Source: an uncultured delta proteobacterium
GTDB lineage: Bacteria > Desulfobacterota > Desulfobacteria > Desulfobacterales > JAHEIW01
Assembly (NCBI GenBank): GCA_963706575.1
Contig: CAVPNL010000008.1
Span: 295,987 to 359,986 of the forward strand
DNA length: 64,000 nt
Direction: 5' to 3'
The notes under the pieces: model-generated
Told to the model about the DNA's origin: nothing
Seen by the model: only the letters and a program-made list of their open reading frames with translations
Database searches by the model: none
Program-made: the position numbers and the translations under genes
Shown: positions 56,132 to 64,000 of the stretch, piece by piece
Numbering within the stretch: position 1 is the stretch's first letter
How the letters are laid out: every line of letters starts with the position of its first letter

Positions 56132-57151
56132 ATGCCGGCAGAACATAATAACAAAACTGAAAACACCAACACGCTTTTTCCGTTTGCTGCTGTTGTCAAC
56201 CAGGAAAAAGCGAAAGAAGCTTTACTGCTGGCTGTCATCAATCCGGCTGTGCATGGGGTTCTATTTTTAGGCGAAAAGGGCACAGGCAAAACAACACTGG
56301 TTCGTAGTTTATCAACTCTATTGCCGGAAACTCAGGTCATTGATCTGCCTTTAGGCTCTGGCGAGGAGATGGTTCTCGGTACGGTGGATGCCGAAAAAGC
56401 GCTGGCCACCGGTAAGATATCTGTCAAGCCGGGCATTTTGGCAAGGGCCGACGGCCACGTGTTGTATATCGATGAAGTGAACCTGCTTGCGGATCATCTA
56501 ATGGATATTATCCTGGATGCCGCAGCAACCGGCCAATATCGGCTGGAGCGCGAGGGAATCTCTTCCAGTAATGCCGCCCGATTTATTCTCGTAGGATCAA
56601 TGAATCCCGAAGAGGGCTGGCTACGCCCGCAGCTTTTGGATCGTTTCGGTCTCGCTGTTCACATAAGCGCCATATCATCGGTGAAGAAGCGGGCCGAAGT
56701 TTTCAATCGCGCCCAGGCCTTTGTGACGGATTCCCGAGCTTTTGTACAATCCTACCAACAAGATCAACTAGAAATTACAGAAAAGCTGCGGCAATCCAGA
56801 AAAAGACTAACGAAAGTCACCATTCCGGATCAACTTACCAACAAAACGATCGAAACGATTTTGCAGTTAGGCGTCAAGACGCACCGGGCGGAGTTGGCCA
56901 TATTACAAGGGGCCAAAGCCCGGGCCGCCTGGTATGAACGTGACTCCGTATCCTGGGAGGACATTCAAACGGTAATGCCGCTGGCGCTCCAGCACCGAAT
57001 AACAACAGTGGACATCCAGAGTCCGGTTACCTGGGACTTGCTCAACGAACGTCTGTTGGAAATAAACAGCAAGGCCAAGAATGAAGACAAAAAAGGCTGG
57101 TTACCCTCCCCATTTTACCGAAAAAAAAAAGCCGAAACGCGGCGCAATTGA
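56132..57151 (+). CDS. Mg/Co-chelatase ChlI/BchI-like AAA+ domain (5' part of a frameshifted chlD-type gene)
   Basis: FPFAAVV.QE, GEKGTGKT, LYIDEVNLL, GSMNPEEG.LRPQLLDRFGL. Confidence 0.9.
   Translation: MPAEHNNKTENTNTLFPFAAVVNQEKAKEALLLAVINPAVHGVLFLGEKGTGKTTLVRSLSTLLPETQVIDLPLGSGEEMVLGTVDAEKALATGKISVKPGILARADGHVLYIDEVNLLADHLMDIILDAAATGQYRLEREGISSSNAARFILVGSMNPEEGWLRPQLLDRFGLAVHISAISSVKKRAEVFNRAQAFVTDSRAFVQSYQQDQLEITEKLRQSRKRLTKVTIPDQLTNKTIETILQLGVKTHRAELAILQGAKARAAWYERDSVSWEDIQTVMPLALQHRITTVDIQSPVTWDLLNERLLEINSKAKNEDKKGWLPSPFYRKKKAETRRN
57121..57143 (+). other. Candidate -1 programmed frameshift site: A10 run followed by a GCCG-AAACG-CGGC hairpin
   Basis: 0-frame CGA AAA AAA AAA GCC stops at 57151; the -1 frame is open from the A run into the VWA ORF. 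Confidence 0.7.
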
Positions 57152-57936
57152 CGCAATCAAAAAGCGCTCAAGGTTCTATCCCAATGACAGATGGTCGGAC
57201 CGCGGATTCGGCTTTTAAAAAAAGCTCGCCTGAGTATCATATTCCAATTCACCCATCCAGAACGGACGCATTCAAATCCCACGGCCGGGCGCGTGCCCGT
57301 AAAACGGCAGTTGCTGCTTTTGGCAAAAAGCAGTCCAATCAGCTCTGGCATACCGGCCCGGTTGACAGTCTGGCCACGATTTTCCACGCCTGGCGATGGG
57401 GTCGTGAGCGGCCCGTTGTTGCAGACCTTATGATGCCCGTGTATACATCGCCTCAGCAGCGTCTCGTGATTTTTTTACTGGATGTGAGTGATTCCATGTC
57501 GGAAACCGTGGATTTAATGCGTCTGTGGATGGCAAAATCCATGGGCGAGGCTTATTTTCGCAGGGATCCGATTGCCATCATAACGGTTCAGGGAGCAGGG
57601 GCCAAATTGCTTGTTCATCCGACCACCAGCATTCATTTTGTTTTGCATCGGCTCACGTCCGTTATTGTGGGAGGGGCCACACCACTGGATCAAGGCCTGC
57701 TAATGGTTGGCCGAATGATTAGACAATGGCACAATCGTTATCGCGTAGTCGATCTTATTGTAATCAGCGATGGTCGCTCGACAGGCGCCCTGGCAGATCC
57801 GAACATATCAGCATCGTTAGCCCTTATCAGAAAATTTGTTCGCGAAGCCCTGGTCATTAACCCCATCCCAATAGCAGATCGATTTGCCAGAGCCTTCGCT
57901 TCACTTATCGGTGCCCAACACTTTACCACTGAATAA
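57148..57936 (+). CDS. ChlD-like VWA domain (3' part, in the -1 frame)
   Basis: FLLDVSDSM MIDAS motif, AYFRRD, GGATPL..GL, VISDGR. Confidence 0.85.
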   Translation: MTQSKSAQGSIPMTDGRTADSAFKKSSPEYHIPIHPSRTDAFKSHGRARARKTAVAAFGKKQSNQLWHTGPVDSLATIFHAWRWGRERPVVADLMMPVYTSPQQRLVIFLLDVSDSMSETVDLMRLWMAKSMGEAYFRRDPIAIITVQGAGAKLLVHPTTSIHFVLHRLTSVIVGGATPLDQGLLMVGRMIRQWHNRYRVVDLIVISDGRSTGALADPNISASLALIRKFVREALVINPIPIADRFARAFASLIGAQHFTTE

Positions 57937-58147
57937 ACCGGAATCCTAAACGAATCCGGCAAACATGGTTATTTTTTGTTCCAATTAAATCGGCAATCCT
58001 CTAAAGCCTTCCATTTCATATCCCTAAAAATACGATAGTTGTATTTGTTTCAATATATCGGTACTCAGTTAATATTTAGTTTTCTGCTGTGCAAGCACGA
58101 TAACGAATATTGGGTGTTATCAATTAACCCTAAAGCGATACTATGTA

Positions 58148-58774
58148 ATGGATTACTTATCTACTATCGGTAGCATTGCTTTTATTTGGTTTCTGGTTGT
58201 AACCATACCCGGTCCAAATTTTGTTGTTGTCACGCAGGTCTCAATGTCAGAGTCGAGAAAAATGGGTTTTTTCATCGCTTTGGGTGTATCGATTGGTGCT
58301 GGCGTCTGGGCGTCTGCAAGTTTATTGGGTATAAGCGTGCTATTCAAATACGCAAGTTGGCTTTACGATGCAATTAAGGTTATTGGTGGTTGTTATTTGA
58401 TTTACATGGGCATAAAGACAATTTGGCATGCCATAAGACAGGAGGTTTTATCAGCTGACCTCGAAAAATCTATGAGTAACAATGTAGCAACTTTTCAAAA
58501 AGGGTTGTTTACAAGTTTTTCTAATCCTAAAACAGCTGCTTTTTTCGGAAGCCTGTTTCTATCAACTTTCCCAGCACAAGCAGCGTTTTGGTTCTATGTT
58601 GTAACTGTTTTAATCGTAATTGCAATTTCCATTCTCTGGTACTGTTTCGTCGCTTACTTTGTTTCTTTAAATAGGATTCAAATTATTTACAAAAGCGCAA
58701 AGCGAATATTAGATGTTGTAGCAGGATCATTGCTATTCTATTTAGGAGGCAAGCTGATATTAGGAAGAACTTAA
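58148..58774 (+). CDS. LysE/RhtB family translocator
   Basis: PGPNF, GGCYLIYMG, NPKTAAFF; AT-rich coding sequence. Confidence 0.9.
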   Translation: MDYLSTIGSIAFIWFLVVTIPGPNFVVVTQVSMSESRKMGFFIALGVSIGAGVWASASLLGISVLFKYASWLYDAIKVIGGCYLIYMGIKTIWHAIRQEVLSADLEKSMSNNVATFQKGLFTSFSNPKTAAFFGSLFLSTFPAQAAFWFYVVTVLIVIAISILWYCFVAYFVSLNRIQIIYKSAKRILDVVAGSLLFYLGGKLILGRT

Positions 58775-58995
58775 AGGCTTGAAGTCTGTGTTTGGATACT
58801 CACGAACTCCCTTATGTGTTGCAAGGAATTCATATATTTCCAGCTTGTCAAAGGTTTTTAAGGTCATATACAAATTGTGATATTCGAGAAAGTAGAAATG
58901 ATATCACAGAGTGCTCGTTTTGGTGATATTCTCAAATCTGCAATTTGCGATATTAAAAATTTTAGACTTCACCCGATGCATTTTAATCGAATAAA

Positions 58996-59440
58996 ATGAT
59001 GGAAAATAAAACAATATATAGAGTACTTATATTCGACGATTCAGAAGAAATTCGATCTTTATTATACGGCTTTTTCAATAAAAGAGGATATGAGGTTTTT
59101 TCTTTCCCTAATCCGGCCGTCTGTCCAATATCTCACGAAAAAATATGTCCCTGTCCAGCTGAAGTAGCTTGTTCAGATTTTATTTTATCAGACTTAGACA
59201 TGCCAGTTCAACAAGGTATAGATTTCTTAGAAGGGCAAATGCGTAAAGGTTGCAAGTGCAAAAATATGGCATTGATGTCTGGAGATTTTACCGAAAACGC
59301 TGTTGTACGAGCCAAATCTATTGGATTAATGCTTTTTAGAAAGCCTTTTGGTATCATAGAAATTTTAGAATGGATAGCAAGCAAAAGAAAAAACTATTGA
59401 CCCTGATAGAAAATTATCAGATTGGTTTCTTGAAAAATGA
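58996..59440 (+). pseudogene. Atypical receiver-domain protein with a Cys-rich insert; probable frameshift near 59380
   Basis: LIFDD, SDLDMP, MSG, KPF; an alternative frame continues KEKTIDPDRKLSDWFLEK* to 59440. Confidence 0.6.
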
Positions 59441-59617
59441 GTATGATATCACAAGCGAAGATGTTTCTTTGATCAATAAATCAGTAGTTCTCTGATGGTT
59501 GATCTTCTTACAAGGACTTACAGCTGTTTTTCTTTAATTTCAAAAGAAAATATTCTATGATTCTTTAAACTTTATATTCCTGCGAATTATGAATTAAGTA
59601 GGTTGGGATTGCTCAAA

Positions 59618-59836
59618 ATGAAAGAAAAAAAAATTTTAAAAGAGGCAAGAATAAGTGACCCTTATGTTGACCGTCGCTCTGGTGAAGATAGACGGCAGGT
59701 TTATAACGCAGATTATTTTCAAAATGGGGGATTGGAAAGAAGAAGTGGTAAAGAGCGAAGGCGAGACTACGAAAGACGGAAGGATTGTACAAGAGTAAGC
59801 GACTGGTCAAGTATCTGTTCGGTTGATAAGGACTAA
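59618..59836 (+). CDS. Small protein with (D/E)RRSGxxRR repeats
   Basis: DRRSGEDRR, ERRSGKERR, ERR; ends RVSDWSSIC. Confidence 0.7.
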   Translation: MKEKKILKEARISDPYVDRRSGEDRRQVYNADYFQNGGLERRSGKERRRDYERRKDCTRVSDWSSICSVDKD

Positions 59837-60241
59837 TTTCTGAATTATCCAATAATCGCTAAACATAATTCTTAAGAATCAGTTCCTTTAAGGCCGAGAT
59901 ACTTCTAAAGACTGTCGACAACCCTACCTTGATTTCAATTTCCACTTAATTCAATATATTACATGATTGTTTGCTATAGAAAAAAACAATTCTAAAAAGC
60001 TTTATAACTATCTTTATTAAGAATAGTTATTATTGTAATTAAGATTTAACTCTGCTATCTTTCGTCTGATTTTATCACTATTCAATTGGCCTTCCTTTTT
60101 TGGATCCTCAAATAGATGGTATAAATCGTTTCTGAACTATTCGCTAACACTTAATTTGTAATATCTAAGCAATTGCTTGCAAACTAAGTTGGTAATTCGC
60201 GAAAATTCTTATCGTCCCTCCTAGAAAGTACCATTTAAAAA

Positions 60242-60556
60242 ATGAATAAATGCCCAAGATGTAACCTACCGCAAAATGGACTTTATAAATGTCAATATTG
60301 TGGTTTTGACCTAAAAAAATATAACAAAAAGCCCACCACAATAATCCGAAAAAGGTTGAAAGATATCATTAGCGGATTTAAAAAAGGCCAGATAGTTTCA
60401 AGCAATAAAAAAAGCAATGTCCGCTCTATGAATTATGCTGGGAAGGCGAAAAAAAGTACAGATCATTTTGGAAGCCGCTCGGGAACTGATAGGCGACAAA
60501 AGAAAAATACAACCTATTTTCCCGAAAGAAGATCAGGCATGGACCGGAGAAAATGA
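60242..60556 (+). CDS. Small zinc-ribbon protein with RSGxDRR repeats
   Basis: CPRC..CQYCG N-terminus; RSGTDRR and ERRSGMDRR. Confidence 0.6.
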   Translation: MNKCPRCNLPQNGLYKCQYCGFDLKKYNKKPTTIIRKRLKDIISGFKKGQIVSSNKKSNVRSMNYAGKAKKSTDHFGSRSGTDRRQKKNTTYFPERRSGMDRRK

Positions 60557-60782
60557 TTTGATCTTAGAAGCTCAATTGCAAGAAAAAGAGGGTTCTAGAG
60601 CAGAGTTAGTCTAAATCCTCGAGAATCATACACCATAAAGCACAGGGACACATTCAGAAAACAATCTTAAAATAAATGCCAATTATTTAGGAAGTGCAAT
60701 TAAAATCTTTGATTACTTGTATGTTTCCTCGAACTTTCCTAAAAATCTAAGCAACGTGTAAGAGTCTGTTTGATAATCAACC

Positions 60783-60916
60783 GTGGTGTAGCAGACCGAT
60801 AGGTATCAGGTCTTTTAAGACCGAGTTGGAGCGCGGGTCGCTACACTACCTCCCATCTAACCCGAACGGTTGCAGGGGCATTGTAGCCCGCATGTTGCAA
60901 GACCGGGTACTGGAGG
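60783..60916 (+). ncRNA. Predicted IS110 bridge RNA (target-binding and donor-binding loops)
   Basis: Two stem/internal-loop/hairpin modules; loop AGTTGGAG complements right flank CTCCAACT; loop ACGGTTGC equals the element's right end. Confidence 0.8.
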
Positions 60917-60921
60917 ATGTC

Positions 60922-61488
60922 ATGGAAACAAAGCTATTTGTTGGAGTTGATGTCAGCAAAGACAGTTTAGACGTTGCTATTGGCCCGCAAAAAGACATCA
61001 TCACAAACGCAATAAAAAGGACATCGAGGATCATATCCGATGGCTTAAAAAACGCCTTGATAAAATCGAAACCGATATTGGTAAAATGATCCAAAGCAGC
61101 CCGATTTGGCGCTGTAAGGACGATATTTTGCAAAGCGTACCGGGCATTGGGCCCGTTACATCGGCCAGCTTAATCTGCGATCTTCCGGAGTTAGGTGTTT
61201 TGAGTCCGAAAAAGATTGCCATGTTGGCCGGTCTTGCGCCGTTAAATTGCGATAGCGGAAAATACAAGGGACGCCGCAGAATATGGGGAGGCCGTGCTTG
61301 TGTTCGCTCTGGTTTGTACATGGCAACGATGGCAGCGATCCGATGTAATCCGGCCATTAAGGGGTTCTATCAACGGCTGATTGCTGCCGGTAAATGTCAT
61401 AAGGTTGCGGCCACCGCCTGCATGCGGAAATTGTTGATAATCGTCAAATGCGATGCTTCGCGACCAAACGCTCTGGCAGCAAAATTAA
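60922..61488 (+). pseudogene. IS110 transposase pseudogene (most of the DEDD domain deleted, frameshifts)
   Basis: After ~28 codons it jumps to coiled-coil DIEDHIRWLKKRLDKIE in another frame; extra A near 61447 before NAMLRDQTLWQQN*. Confidence 0.85.
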
Positions 61489-61686
61489 TACTTGACTCCA
61501 AACACGGTTGCTCCAACTATATCAAAGGTTTTTGGGGACATAAAAATGTTGTGATATTCTAGGATATCTGTAATTTTGGCAAAATACAGATTATCTCACC
61601 TGTAACATTGTTTCTACTGTTTTTAGAATAGGGAATTATATTTACCATAGGCTATAAGTCTATTTCTATTTATGTAAGGAGTAGTC

Positions 61687-62520
61687 ATGAAGTTGTCAGT
61701 CATTACAGGGGCTTCAAGTGGAATCGGCGCTGCAACAGCGCGTCGAATGGCGGCCGATGGGTACAAGGTAGTACTTGTAGCACGCGGACGATCCAAAATT
61801 GACGAAGTTGCAGCGGAGATAGGCAAAAACGCTGTGGCCGAACCCTGTGATGCCAGCGACGGAGACGCTGTGCTATCGCTTGCCGAGCGTGTGCGCGACG
61901 AATTCGGAGTACCGGACGTAATAGTCAACTCCGCAGGGGCCGGTCAGTGGAAGCTGATAGAGGAGACCACGCCGGCTGAGGGGGTGACGATGATGGAGGC
62001 ACCATATTTTGCTGCCTTCAACATCACCCATGGTTTCATGCGTGACATGCTTGAACGAAATCGTGGCGTTATCATCCATGTCAGTTCACCTGTGTCGATC
62101 TTCACGTGGCCATCTTGCACTGGATACGCGGCGGCACGTTGGGCTCTGACGAGGGTTGCATGAGTCGTTGTGCGACGACCTTTATGATACAGGGGTGCGA
62201 AGCTGTCATGTAGTGTTCGGCAAGGCGTCAGAAGCTCTTACTTTGACAACAACCCAGGCGTAGAGGACAAATTGCCAGGCATCGCCAAAACGGTGCGAAC
62301 CATATCACCCGAGGAGTGTGCCAACGTTATCGCGAACGCAGCAATAAGACCGCGACGTCAGGTGGTGTATCCGATCATGCTACGGATTTACGTTTGGAGC
62401 TACGCTTTGTTCCCGTGGTTAACACGATGGCTGTTACGGACCACTGGGGCCAAGCGTCAAATTCAAACGCCATCGTCTTACGACCTTAGGAGCTGTAAAA
62501 CAAGGCCATACAATGGATGA
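61687..62520 (+). pseudogene. SDR family oxidoreductase with two frameshifts (~62149, ~62228)
   Basis: ITGASSGIG, VNSAG, YAAAR; continues RGLHESLCDDLYDTGV and SYFDNNPG in shifted frames. Confidence 0.8.
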
Positions 62521-62712
62521 TTGACGGTCTTAATAGGCTGTACTAACTCCAACTTATCAAAAGCTTTTAAGGTTATTAAGAGGTTCTGATTTTTTGGCAT
62601 ATCACAAATTTCCCGGGTTAGTGATATTCTCAATCAGTAATTCTCTTCTAATATCTAATACTCAGGAATTATTTCCACTCATTTAATAGTTTAGAGCAAA
62701 GGAAAACAGGTC

Positions 62713-63651
62713 GTGAAAGTACCAATAAACAACACTGTGATAGAAGTTAGACTAAAATGCAAACCCACTAATAGACATGTTGTTTTTTTGACCAGTTGTT
62801 TGGTGATTCTGTTTCTGATCTTTGGAGTGATACGAGCGGAAGCAAAATGGCCGCGAGTCGTCCCTTCCAAAGATGGCATCCCTATTTCTTTTGAGGTCTA
62901 CGGTGCCGGAGAACCGACTTTAGTATTCGTGCATGGTTGGAGCTGCGATGCTCGTTACTGGCGTGCTCAAGTGCCACATTTCTCAAAAAGTCATCGCGTT
63001 GTTACACTTGACCTTGCAGGTCACGGTCATTCGGGTACGAAACGTTTGCAGTATTCCATGTTGGCTTTTGGAGAGGATGTGCGAGTGGTGACAGAATCAA
63101 CTGGTAGTCGTCGAGTCATTCTGATAGGGCATTCCATGGGCGGCTCGGTGATTGCAGAGGCTGCCCGACTCATGCCGAGCCGTGTCATAGGGCTAATTGG
63201 TATAGATACACTTGAAAACATAGAATACCCGATGACTCGTGAAGAGTTCAAAAAAATGATCGCTCCTTTGGAAAAAGATTTTCGAACCGGAAGTCGGCAA
63301 TTCGTTGAGGAAATGATTTCACCCCAAACCGATCCGCAGATTCGCGAGTGGATTCTCTCAGATATGTCAGCTGCGCCACCTGCTGTCGCCTTAAGTGCAA
63401 TGAACAACATGATGTCACAGTACATTACTGGGGAAGCGGCCAAAATATTTGATGAAATTCGCATTCCAGTCATAACCGTGAACGGAGATATGTGGCCCAT
63501 TAACTATGAAGCCAATCGCCGACATATGTCTTTTTTTGAGGCCATTATCCTAAAAGGAGCGGATCATTTCCTTATGCTTGATCGTCCAAAAGAATTCAAT
63601 CAAGCTTTAGAGAAAGCAATACTTACGATATTAAAATATAAGACTAAATAG
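62713..63651 (+). CDS. Secreted alpha/beta hydrolase
   Basis: FVHGWSCD, DLAGHG.S, GHSMGG, HFLML. Confidence 0.9.
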   Translation: MKVPINNTVIEVRLKCKPTNRHVVFLTSCLVILFLIFGVIRAEAKWPRVVPSKDGIPISFEVYGAGEPTLVFVHGWSCDARYWRAQVPHFSKSHRVVTLDLAGHGHSGTKRLQYSMLAFGEDVRVVTESTGSRRVILIGHSMGGSVIAEAARLMPSRVIGLIGIDTLENIEYPMTREEFKKMIAPLEKDFRTGSRQFVEEMISPQTDPQIREWILSDMSAAPPAVALSAMNNMMSQYITGEAAKIFDEIRIPVITVNGDMWPINYEANRRHMSFFEAIILKGADHFLMLDRPKEFNQALEKAILTILKYKTK

Positions 63652-64000
63652 CATCTCCATGCAGCACTTTTGAAAGTTGGGCATAAGTGGTGTATGGTCT
63701 CAAACAAGTGTATACGCCAAATTCCAAAACAATAATGGCTTTCGTTCTAAGTGATGCCTACCGTTATGATTTCAAATATCCAACAAAGTACAAATATCAG
63801 GCTGCTAAATTTTTTGTGATATTCGATTTTAATCACAACTCAGAAGGATGAATCCGGGCTTATGGATTTGCCCTTTTTATTGCCCTAAAGTCGCATTTTT
63901 CGGGCTTATGGTTTGACACCAGATCAAAAAATACGATACGGTTCAGATATCCATTTGGTACCTGAAAAATTGCGATATTTGGGTTTCTCTCAATATATCT

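Follow-up and report, generated by a model that had tools for sequence, protein, structure and literature searches.

Bridge-RNA elements of the IS621/IS110 type (Durrant et al. 2024, PMC11208160) have a non-coding left end with target-binding and donor-binding loops, a CT core at both ends, a left guide of 7 bases plus the core, and a repeated intergenic target. IS110-family elements often target repeats, and members of the IS1111 group target attC sites and the ends of Tn21 (PMC11187229). Group IIC introns also target attC (PMC3001079), and IS1202 elements target Xer sites (10.1101/2022.12.17.520857). These descriptions, and the comparisons below, refer to the covered parts of the sources cited.

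The 64,000-nucleotide stretch of DNA analysed here (the window) is the end of contig C8 in the 5.67-Mb assembly of an uncultured member of the Desulfobacterales (assembly G000). It carries an IS110-group element within a repeat that follows single accessory genes. The element shares with IS621 all of the features just listed, and its donor ends resemble those of the supplementary alignment of PMC11208160, among the matches listed. It differs from IS621 in its target, which is an AT-rich junction of recombinase type rather than a REP palindrome, in its right guide, which agrees with 6 target bases beyond the core, and in that the window copy is catalytically broken. With the IS1111-attC group and with IS4321/IS5075 (PMC11187229, PMC3001079) it shares an aim at what is probably the recombination site or end of another mobile system, near the 5' end. 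In those IS1111 elements the guide RNA lies downstream of the gene, the inverted repeats, of 11-13 bp, are subterminal and the insertion is antisense to the cassettes; here the RNA is upstream, the insertion is in the same sense and the target is not attC.

The surroundings also have described counterparts. Integrons (PMC3001079) likewise consist of co-oriented arrays of unrelated single genes with a repeated site after each, and they too have a group II intron as an occupant. The junction system differs from them in having no IntI, no attC hairpin, two different cores and a recombinase nested between the ends. In the xrs/pdif sites with ISAba32-group IS1202 elements (10.1101/2022.12.17.520857), tyrosine-recombinase sites flank one or a few genes and have a dedicated IS, but the sites here are composites of 95-220 bp that share one orientation, have their own candidate recombinase and are targeted by an RNA-guided IS.

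IS110 elements aimed at recombination sites are already known. This target, with its guild of parasites, was not found in the literature searched, outside which subscription papers lay, and the junction site is absent from the covered part of a survey of non-coding sequence (10.64898/2026.10.21.760802). The covered part of the supplements of PMC11187229 holds no match; the guide pair may still stand in the data of PMC11208160. The junction cassette system is apparently undescribed, with working bases that the IS110 and three other parasites pinpoint. The reading favoured here, with a probability of roughly two in three, is that a bridge RNA targets the IS110 to the repeat and that the repeat is the crossover site of a small tyrosine recombinase.

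The IS110 element and its guides

The features of the element and of the site that it occupies are as follows.

60709-60715, +: left target flank TTGATTA, the displaced left arm of the repeat, from four IS-free homologous sites
60716-61512, +: IS110-group element, CT core to CT core, 797 nt, internally deleted
60716-60724, +: left CT core and right-donor sequence TGTATGT (IS left end), common to 17 distinct left junctions
60783-60910, +: predicted bridge RNA with target-binding and donor-binding hairpins, from the fold; bounds approximate
60800-60808, +: left target guide TAGGTAT-CA, its position confirmed by agreement of guide and flank in other copies
60823-60831, +: right target guide GAGTTGGAG, pairing with CTCCAACT
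60866-60874, +: left donor guide ACGGTTG-CA, equal to the left-donor 7-mer at 61504-61510
60892-60901, +: probable right donor guide, read from the sequence; its final six bases pair with CTTGTA (one G-T pair)
60922-61490, +: broken IS110 recombinase gene, PF02371 retained, 364-bp deletion
61504-61510, +: left-donor 7-mer ACGGTTG (IS right end), from the sequence
61511-61517, +: L core CTCCAAC of the repeat, its first two bases being the IS core
61511-61600, +: junction repeat body with L core, GATA/TATC inverted boxes and R core (TCTCA at 61594-61598)

When full-length elements from related genomes are compared, the left end falls on the second CT (60716-60717), followed by TGTATGT; an end near 60750 was dropped, since the relatives give 60716. 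At the other end the CT core at 61511-61512 comes directly after ACGGTTG and is followed by CCAACTATATCAAAGG. A CT is thus present at both ends (60716 and 61511), and there is a single CT in the empty homologous sites.

The window element belongs to the IS110 group of the IS110 family, with a recombinase of the DEDD RuvC-like and Transposase_20 type. Intact relatives are 1163 nt long, against 797 nt here, and alignment with one of them (L002) covers its positions 1-290 and 655-1163 at 90-94% identity. The 364-bp deletion has removed the FESTG and KTDAIDA motifs and shifted the frame, leaving PF02371 (Transposase_20). The intact recombinase of L002 scores 232.8 bits with NF033542, for which the cut-off is 140. 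Between the stop codon of the intact gene and the right core there are only about 20 nt, and the guides lie upstream of the gene. No intact copy of the element was found in the 5.67-Mb assembly, where its sole other trace is a right-end fragment at C4:360815-360673, also adjoining a repeat. A scan of genome contigs gave only two close relatives of the transposase, the remaining 77 loci being 47-58% identical. A small indel at 61444-61445 relative to other populations breaks the end of the transposase, through decay or assembly error.

The non-coding region upstream of the gene can be folded into two hairpins with internal loops. The fold has a z of -1.27 against shuffled sequences, which is not significant, so the fold alone is no evidence for a bridge RNA. 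The four guides in its loops were assigned on the template of the IS621 layout, as given in the covered part of PMC11208160. This assignment is checked by five relatives with 52-58% protein identity (L068, L069, L102, L103 and L105), in which the scaffold and donor ends are kept and the guides vary with the flanks. More generally, distant relatives (47-58% identity) carry other guides that, read by eye, fit their own flanks. For the left guide, 63 of 77 positions match the copy's own flank (permutation mean 54.2, p 0.0003) and the variable last base agrees in 11 of 13 cases (p 0.004), both p values overstating the significance because the IS copies are related. A bridge RNA is probably made.

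The last 8 bases of the right target guide GAGTTGGAG are the reverse complement of CTCCAACT, as the initial annotation had said of the unoccupied copy at 62547. The remaining 13 distinct right target guides are GTGTTGGAG; the guide in the window is the sole one of the 14 with A at its second position, and this fits its own CCAACT. In its left guide the window copy is an outlier, matching its own flank at 3 of 7 bases with one further G-T pair. This misfit is due either to drift after the element died, to movement in trans, or to entry on a partial match. Entry on a partial match has been reported (10.64898/2026.08.31.748434, in the part covered).

Insertion at the junction repeat

The other junctions and genes of the array in which the element sits are as follows.

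57979-58061, +: degenerate junction that opens the array behind the vWA gene; weak (E 0.79), a homologue (L278) diverging here
58148-58774, +: cargo, LysE translocator (PF01810)
58838-58936, +: unoccupied junction repeat, L core variant TTCCAGC, R core at 58930
58996-59400, +: cargo, response regulator receiver, with a second copy at G000:C1:174540
59445-59480, +: degenerate R-type half site ending the response-regulator unit; homologues diverge here, loose ends at 59473
59603-60556, +: two small ORFs with no Pfam family, the unit whose 3' junction carries the IS
61687-62520, +: cargo, short-chain dehydrogenase (SDR), in pieces in the assembly (ORF/Pfam)
62547-62635, +: unoccupied junction repeat, L core 62547-62553, R core 62628-62634, loose ends at 62632
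62713-63651, +: cargo, alpha/beta hydrolase (ORF/Pfam)
63778-63995, +: longer junction (about 220 bp) with an internal hairpin, L core at 63778, R core 63988-63994, contigs ending at 63780

Three copies in the window have a mean column identity of 70% and match a genome-derived profile with E values of 1e-13 to 1e-16. With an iterated profile there are 58 copies at E<1e-3 in the 5.67-Mb assembly, bearing out the earlier claim of a multi-copy target, and 56 of these are without an IS110. The copies cluster in islands. A full copy contains three pairs of inverted GATA/TATC boxes and has a 7-bp core at each end, CTCCAAC at the left (L core) and TCTCAAT at the right (R core). The copies fall into several length classes (95 bp, about 220 bp). 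GATA-N-TATC arms flank the 7-bp cores and the homology breakpoints lie at the cores, a layout to be compared with that of a tyrosine recombinase site, which has inverted arms around a core of 6-8 bp where the strands are exchanged.

All but one of the 58 copies (57) are outside ORFs of at least 100 aa. The repeats are strongly co-oriented with the genes around them, the upstream ORF being on the repeat strand in 53 of 57 cases and the downstream ORF in 53 of 57. Sites of the pdif type alternate in orientation, whereas 37 of 38 neighbouring copies within 5 kb are on the same strand here. A 17-letter gapped pattern of the repeat is found in 22 of 25 genomes of the family, with 0 matches for the reversed control, and in 11 of 151 genomes across the order. 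No Rfam family reaches its threshold in 57000-64000, where sX15 scores 35 bits against a gathering score of 55.

A look-alike with a shorter spacer (17 nt from the core to the next box) is found in another family, at L216 and L226-L229 (G201) and at L215 (G268). There are 5 matches to it in G201, and the copy in G268 is 4 kb from a recombinase of the small tyrosine recombinase family described below. Junction repeats in L186 (G023) and at G000:C4:294391-295452 have an mreB-like gene beside them; its N-terminus is the same in both genomes and its neighbours are different.

The sequences named in the initial annotation are present: CCAACTATATCAAAGG after the IS end, CTCCAACT at 62547 and TTCCAGCT at 58838. 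Its placement of the IS at the first bases of the repeat needs adjustment. The insertion is inside the repeat, and the bases in question are the first two of the 7-bp L core; the left arm has been displaced to 60709-60715, beyond the far end of the IS.

To assemble a set of right junctions, a pattern of the IS right end stopping at CT was used, giving 29 metagenome stretches, to which five genome loci were added. Two duplicates (L058 and L063) were dropped, leaving 32 distinct right junctions, 30 of which start with CCAAC. Each of the 17 distinct left junctions has a GATA-like word at its end, GATAC or GATAT in 14 of them. For the sequence beyond the core, 33 copies in G000 were used to build a profile of the repeat body from its eighth base on, the two occupied by IS110 being excluded against circularity. 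The repeat body continues at 20 of the 27 junctions that have at least 40 further bases and so can be scored (threshold 5 bits; 16 reach at least 10 bits), compared with 23 of 395 CTCCAAC words in G000, a control drawn from G000 only and not from the hosts of the metagenome contigs. These counts uphold the proposal that the guide is programmed against the repeat, and targeting of the repeat by the IS110 is close to certain.

The initial annotation had proposed looking for a particular motif directly downstream of the core. The enrichment of the repeat is there, while the motif proved too narrow, with TCAAAG at 4 of 32 junctions and GTGATATTC at 2 of 27. It had also held that insertions in unrelated contexts would tell against targeting, and such insertions are few. 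Seven of the 27 junctions score below 5 bits; by eye, five of these have arm-like boxes or match another junction in G000, and two (L045 and L051) look unrelated to the repeat.

Exact GATA[CT]CTCCAAC words in G000 are repeat sites in 3 of 5 cases, and looser words in 7 of 12 (by eye). Pairing alone would be enough to explain the preference, because exact words of the guide type are rare in G000 and mostly in repeats. For ISPpu10 an extra structural determinant of targeting is reported in the covered literature; on the same counts of words none is needed here.

Homologous empty sites are found in G015, G016 (two loci) and G017, where AAAACC and a GATAY-type arm run directly into CTCCAAC. The repeat bodies after CTCCAAC differ among them, and L060 is a second IS-filled allele of the homologous end. 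Because the empty sites join the arm to CTCCAAC, the insertion point of the IS within the site falls between a weak left arm and a strongly conserved core. In 29 unoccupied copies the left arm has A at -4 in 16, T at -3 in 16 and A at -2 in 18. Its conservation is 0.2-0.3 bits per position, compared with 1.0-2.3 bits in the core, the latter due in part to anchoring. In one IS-free allele (L281 of G015, about 2625-2645) the sequence reads ACGGTTG-CT-CCAAC, where the filled homologue L060 has CCGTTGATAT; this ACGGTTG may be the scar of an imprecise loss of the IS by microhomology.

Gene units and other elements at the cores

The repeat delimits co-oriented single-gene units, and duplicated stretches end at or near the cores. 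One of 372 nt (98.7% identity) runs from the first base of an R core to just past the next R core. Another, of 1317 nt (92%), begins at an R core and stops close to an L core, and in a third, of 706 nt (99.7%), the end falls 14 nt short of an L core. Three homologues of the response-regulator unit (L261, L287 and L288) diverge at 59471-59489, where the unit ends.

A population comparison was made with contigs from four runs at an 85% threshold, runs with small word shares being left aside. The SDR unit (61598-62624) is present in two other sediment runs (X2 and X4) with 16 differences in 1027 nt, and there it stands behind a different, longer junction. Pieces of the hydrolase unit in other populations are bounded by 62633 and 63780. 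Loose contig ends pile up at 59473, 60716, 61598, 62632 and 63999, those at 60716 being in run X1. Indels of 1-2 bases at 59383-59385, 62148, 62230 and 62480 relative to the other populations break the end of the response regulator and the SDR, through decay or assembly error.

Nine L-core sites in G000 are occupied, including two with IS110s. IS1182 (NF033551) adjoins CTCCA or CCAAC at four places, at one of which (on contig C6) the core is present with no clear repeat body. One L core is split into CTCCAA and C by a group II intron (TIGR04416), which stands at G000:C4:303087-301233 (L034) on the strand of the cargo genes. A MITE of about 107 bp with IS1182-like ends is found at TCTCA of R cores, in three copies.

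G000:C4:360576-360469: MITE, IS1182-like end
G000:C4:292241-292134: MITE, IS1182-like end
G000:C12:204368-204475: MITE, IS1182-like end

A fourth kind of element is 2.1 kb long, encodes two tyrosine recombinases (359 and 306 aa) and has its own inverted ends. Two near-identical copies in G000, at C12:208281-210388 and C1:2124-23 (L031 and L032), have CTCCAAC on both sides, and the same junctions are found in G012, G015 and G027. Only 4 of 24 family genomes contain it. As a candidate for owner of the repeat it was demoted, being an insertion with its own ends. It shares with the RIT, BIM and Tn554-like elements (PMC3414803, PMC8138268) a small size and simple tyrosine recombinase genes, but has two genes and not three, with no partner of 600-800 aa and no third gene in its 2.1 kb. 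Since RIT elements need three adjacent genes and there are two between its inverted ends, it was not classed as RIT; it fits neither the RIT nor the Tn554 descriptions in the covered parts of these papers.

The candidate recombinase and the nature of the site

There are ten tyrosine recombinase matches in G000, among which no IntI was found, the best match being 27%. The candidate enzyme for the repeat is a small tyrosine recombinase at C18:107741-108580, from a family of about 277 aa. The copy in G000 retains the residues R, K, HxxR, H and Y. It is without the IntI insertion and scores 55.7 with the IntI model, for which the cut-off is 265. Across the order this recombinase is present in 54 of 301 genomes, a far wider spread than that of the exact repeat pattern (11 of 151), and it is in 8 of 24 other genomes of the bacterial family. 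With the query used it was not found in the 16 others of those 24, including the well-assembled G004 and G007, which have 8 and 9 matches to the repeat pattern. A search of plasmids gave matches of 27-29% only.

In G023 and G025 the recombinase gene is on the opposite strand, between L-type and R-type ends, and its 3' flank with a terminator hairpin aligns with the L half of five G000 repeats; the R half of the repeat is located upstream of the gene. Many of the 41 recombinase loci have a faint likeness to the G000 repeat or none. At 26 of the 41 a run of nine A near the start leaves the start codon and the body of the gene in different frames (the run is in G000 at C18:108520-108580, L154), which suggests control by slippage.

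On the favoured reading, an IS621-type IS110 would insert at GATAY-CT-CCAAC through its bridge RNA. In this sequence the left arm of a junction site is followed by its 7-bp core. The site, of which this genome has about 60, is co-oriented with single accessory genes and is most likely the recombination site of the small tyrosine recombinase. The recombinase gene is nested on the opposite strand between CTCCAAC-type and TCTCAAT-type ends, the 95-bp and 220-bp repeats being the same two ends minus the gene. The enzyme probably acts on the 7-bp cores, and crossovers within them would move gene units between junctions. It is likely that the IS target is the crossover core of such a cassette system. 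The IS would benefit from an abundant, non-coding and conserved target, and by severing the left arm its insertion probably disables the L core. A simple one-site model does not account for the difference in sequence between the two cores.

That the repeat is a functional element had been proposed from the IS insertion. It is indeed abundant and conserved, but targeting by an IS is by itself no proof of function; evidence for function lies in the link to the recombinase and in the homology breakpoints, which are located at the cores. The junction site may be selfish rather than of benefit to the host. Such selfishness is central to what is, among the alternatives, the least improbable, though still unlikely: the repeat would be a miniature derivative of the recombinase element that inserts after genes, its cores being the ends of the element and the cargo never shuffled, with the IS targeting real. 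The homology of the repeat halves to the recombinase flanks and terminator would follow, as would the several length classes (95 bp and about 220 bp) and the many repeat-bearing genomes in which the recombinase was not detected. Against this, the cargo units are themselves duplicated with ends at cores, the copies are clustered in islands and their co-orientation with the flanking genes is strict. It is less probable again that the site is served by the two-recombinase element, by the host XerC/D or by some other recombinase, with the small recombinase as a passenger. The two-recombinase element can recombine at the core, because it is inserted with CTCCAAC on both sides (twice in G000, and in G015), and the small recombinase is missing from many assemblies, but the inverted ends of that element are unlike the repeat and it is in only 4 of 24 family genomes, whereas the repeat arms match the small recombinase's own flanks.

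The other two alternatives have very little left to them. The repeat resembles attC in its position just after stop codons, in its co-orientation, in the likeness of CTCCAAC to the attC inverse core and in the attC-like remnants beside some junctions, and it might have been a divergent attC in an integron without integrase, with the IS as a counterpart of the IS1111-attC elements. This is largely refuted by the single-strand hairpin, which is inconsistent (z of -2.2 to +1.1 for 12 copies on both strands), by the GTT core partner, found in only 2 of 12 and at unrelated positions, and by the recombinases, no IntI being present in G000 and the linked enzyme being without the IntI insertion (55.7 against 265). 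The idea that the IS has no real preference, through chance insertion or because the repeat is part of the IS end, can be taken as refuted. It is left with the minority of insertions without a repeat body, while the sequences after the core differ among IS copies yet match the repeat model, empty homologous sites exist, and the great majority of repeat copies (56 of 58) have no IS110.

The crossover-site reading can be extended, at odds only slightly better than even, to a second, non-integron cassette system in the Desulfobacterales. In this a small, frameshift-controlled recombinase would be nested between two cores, and the system would be of sufficient age and abundance for a guild of its own specialists (the RNA-guided IS110, IS1182 with its MITE, the group II intron and the two-recombinase element) to have converged on the crossover core. 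If real, such a system gives sediment sulfate reducers a way of gaining genes that integron finders would miss. If the crossover-site reading is true, the crossover site can be read from the IS110 guide, and other systems of this kind might be located through IS110 guides. The locus offers a natural multi-copy case of programmed bridge RNA, the guides changing along with the flanks. The presence of four unrelated kinds of mobile element on the same seven bases mirrors the situation at attC and marks these bases for a recombination assay.

In G023 a true IntI-type gene with a truncated C-terminus (L181, 9405-10280) lies about 9 kb from the copy of the small recombinase. After some cargo genes, just before the L core, there are attC-like remnants, identified by eye from attC features. 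They are found in L259 (G023), in L276 (G018), at 62490-62546 in the window and at G000:C1:180610-180715. This suggests that integron cassettes have been captured into junction arrays.
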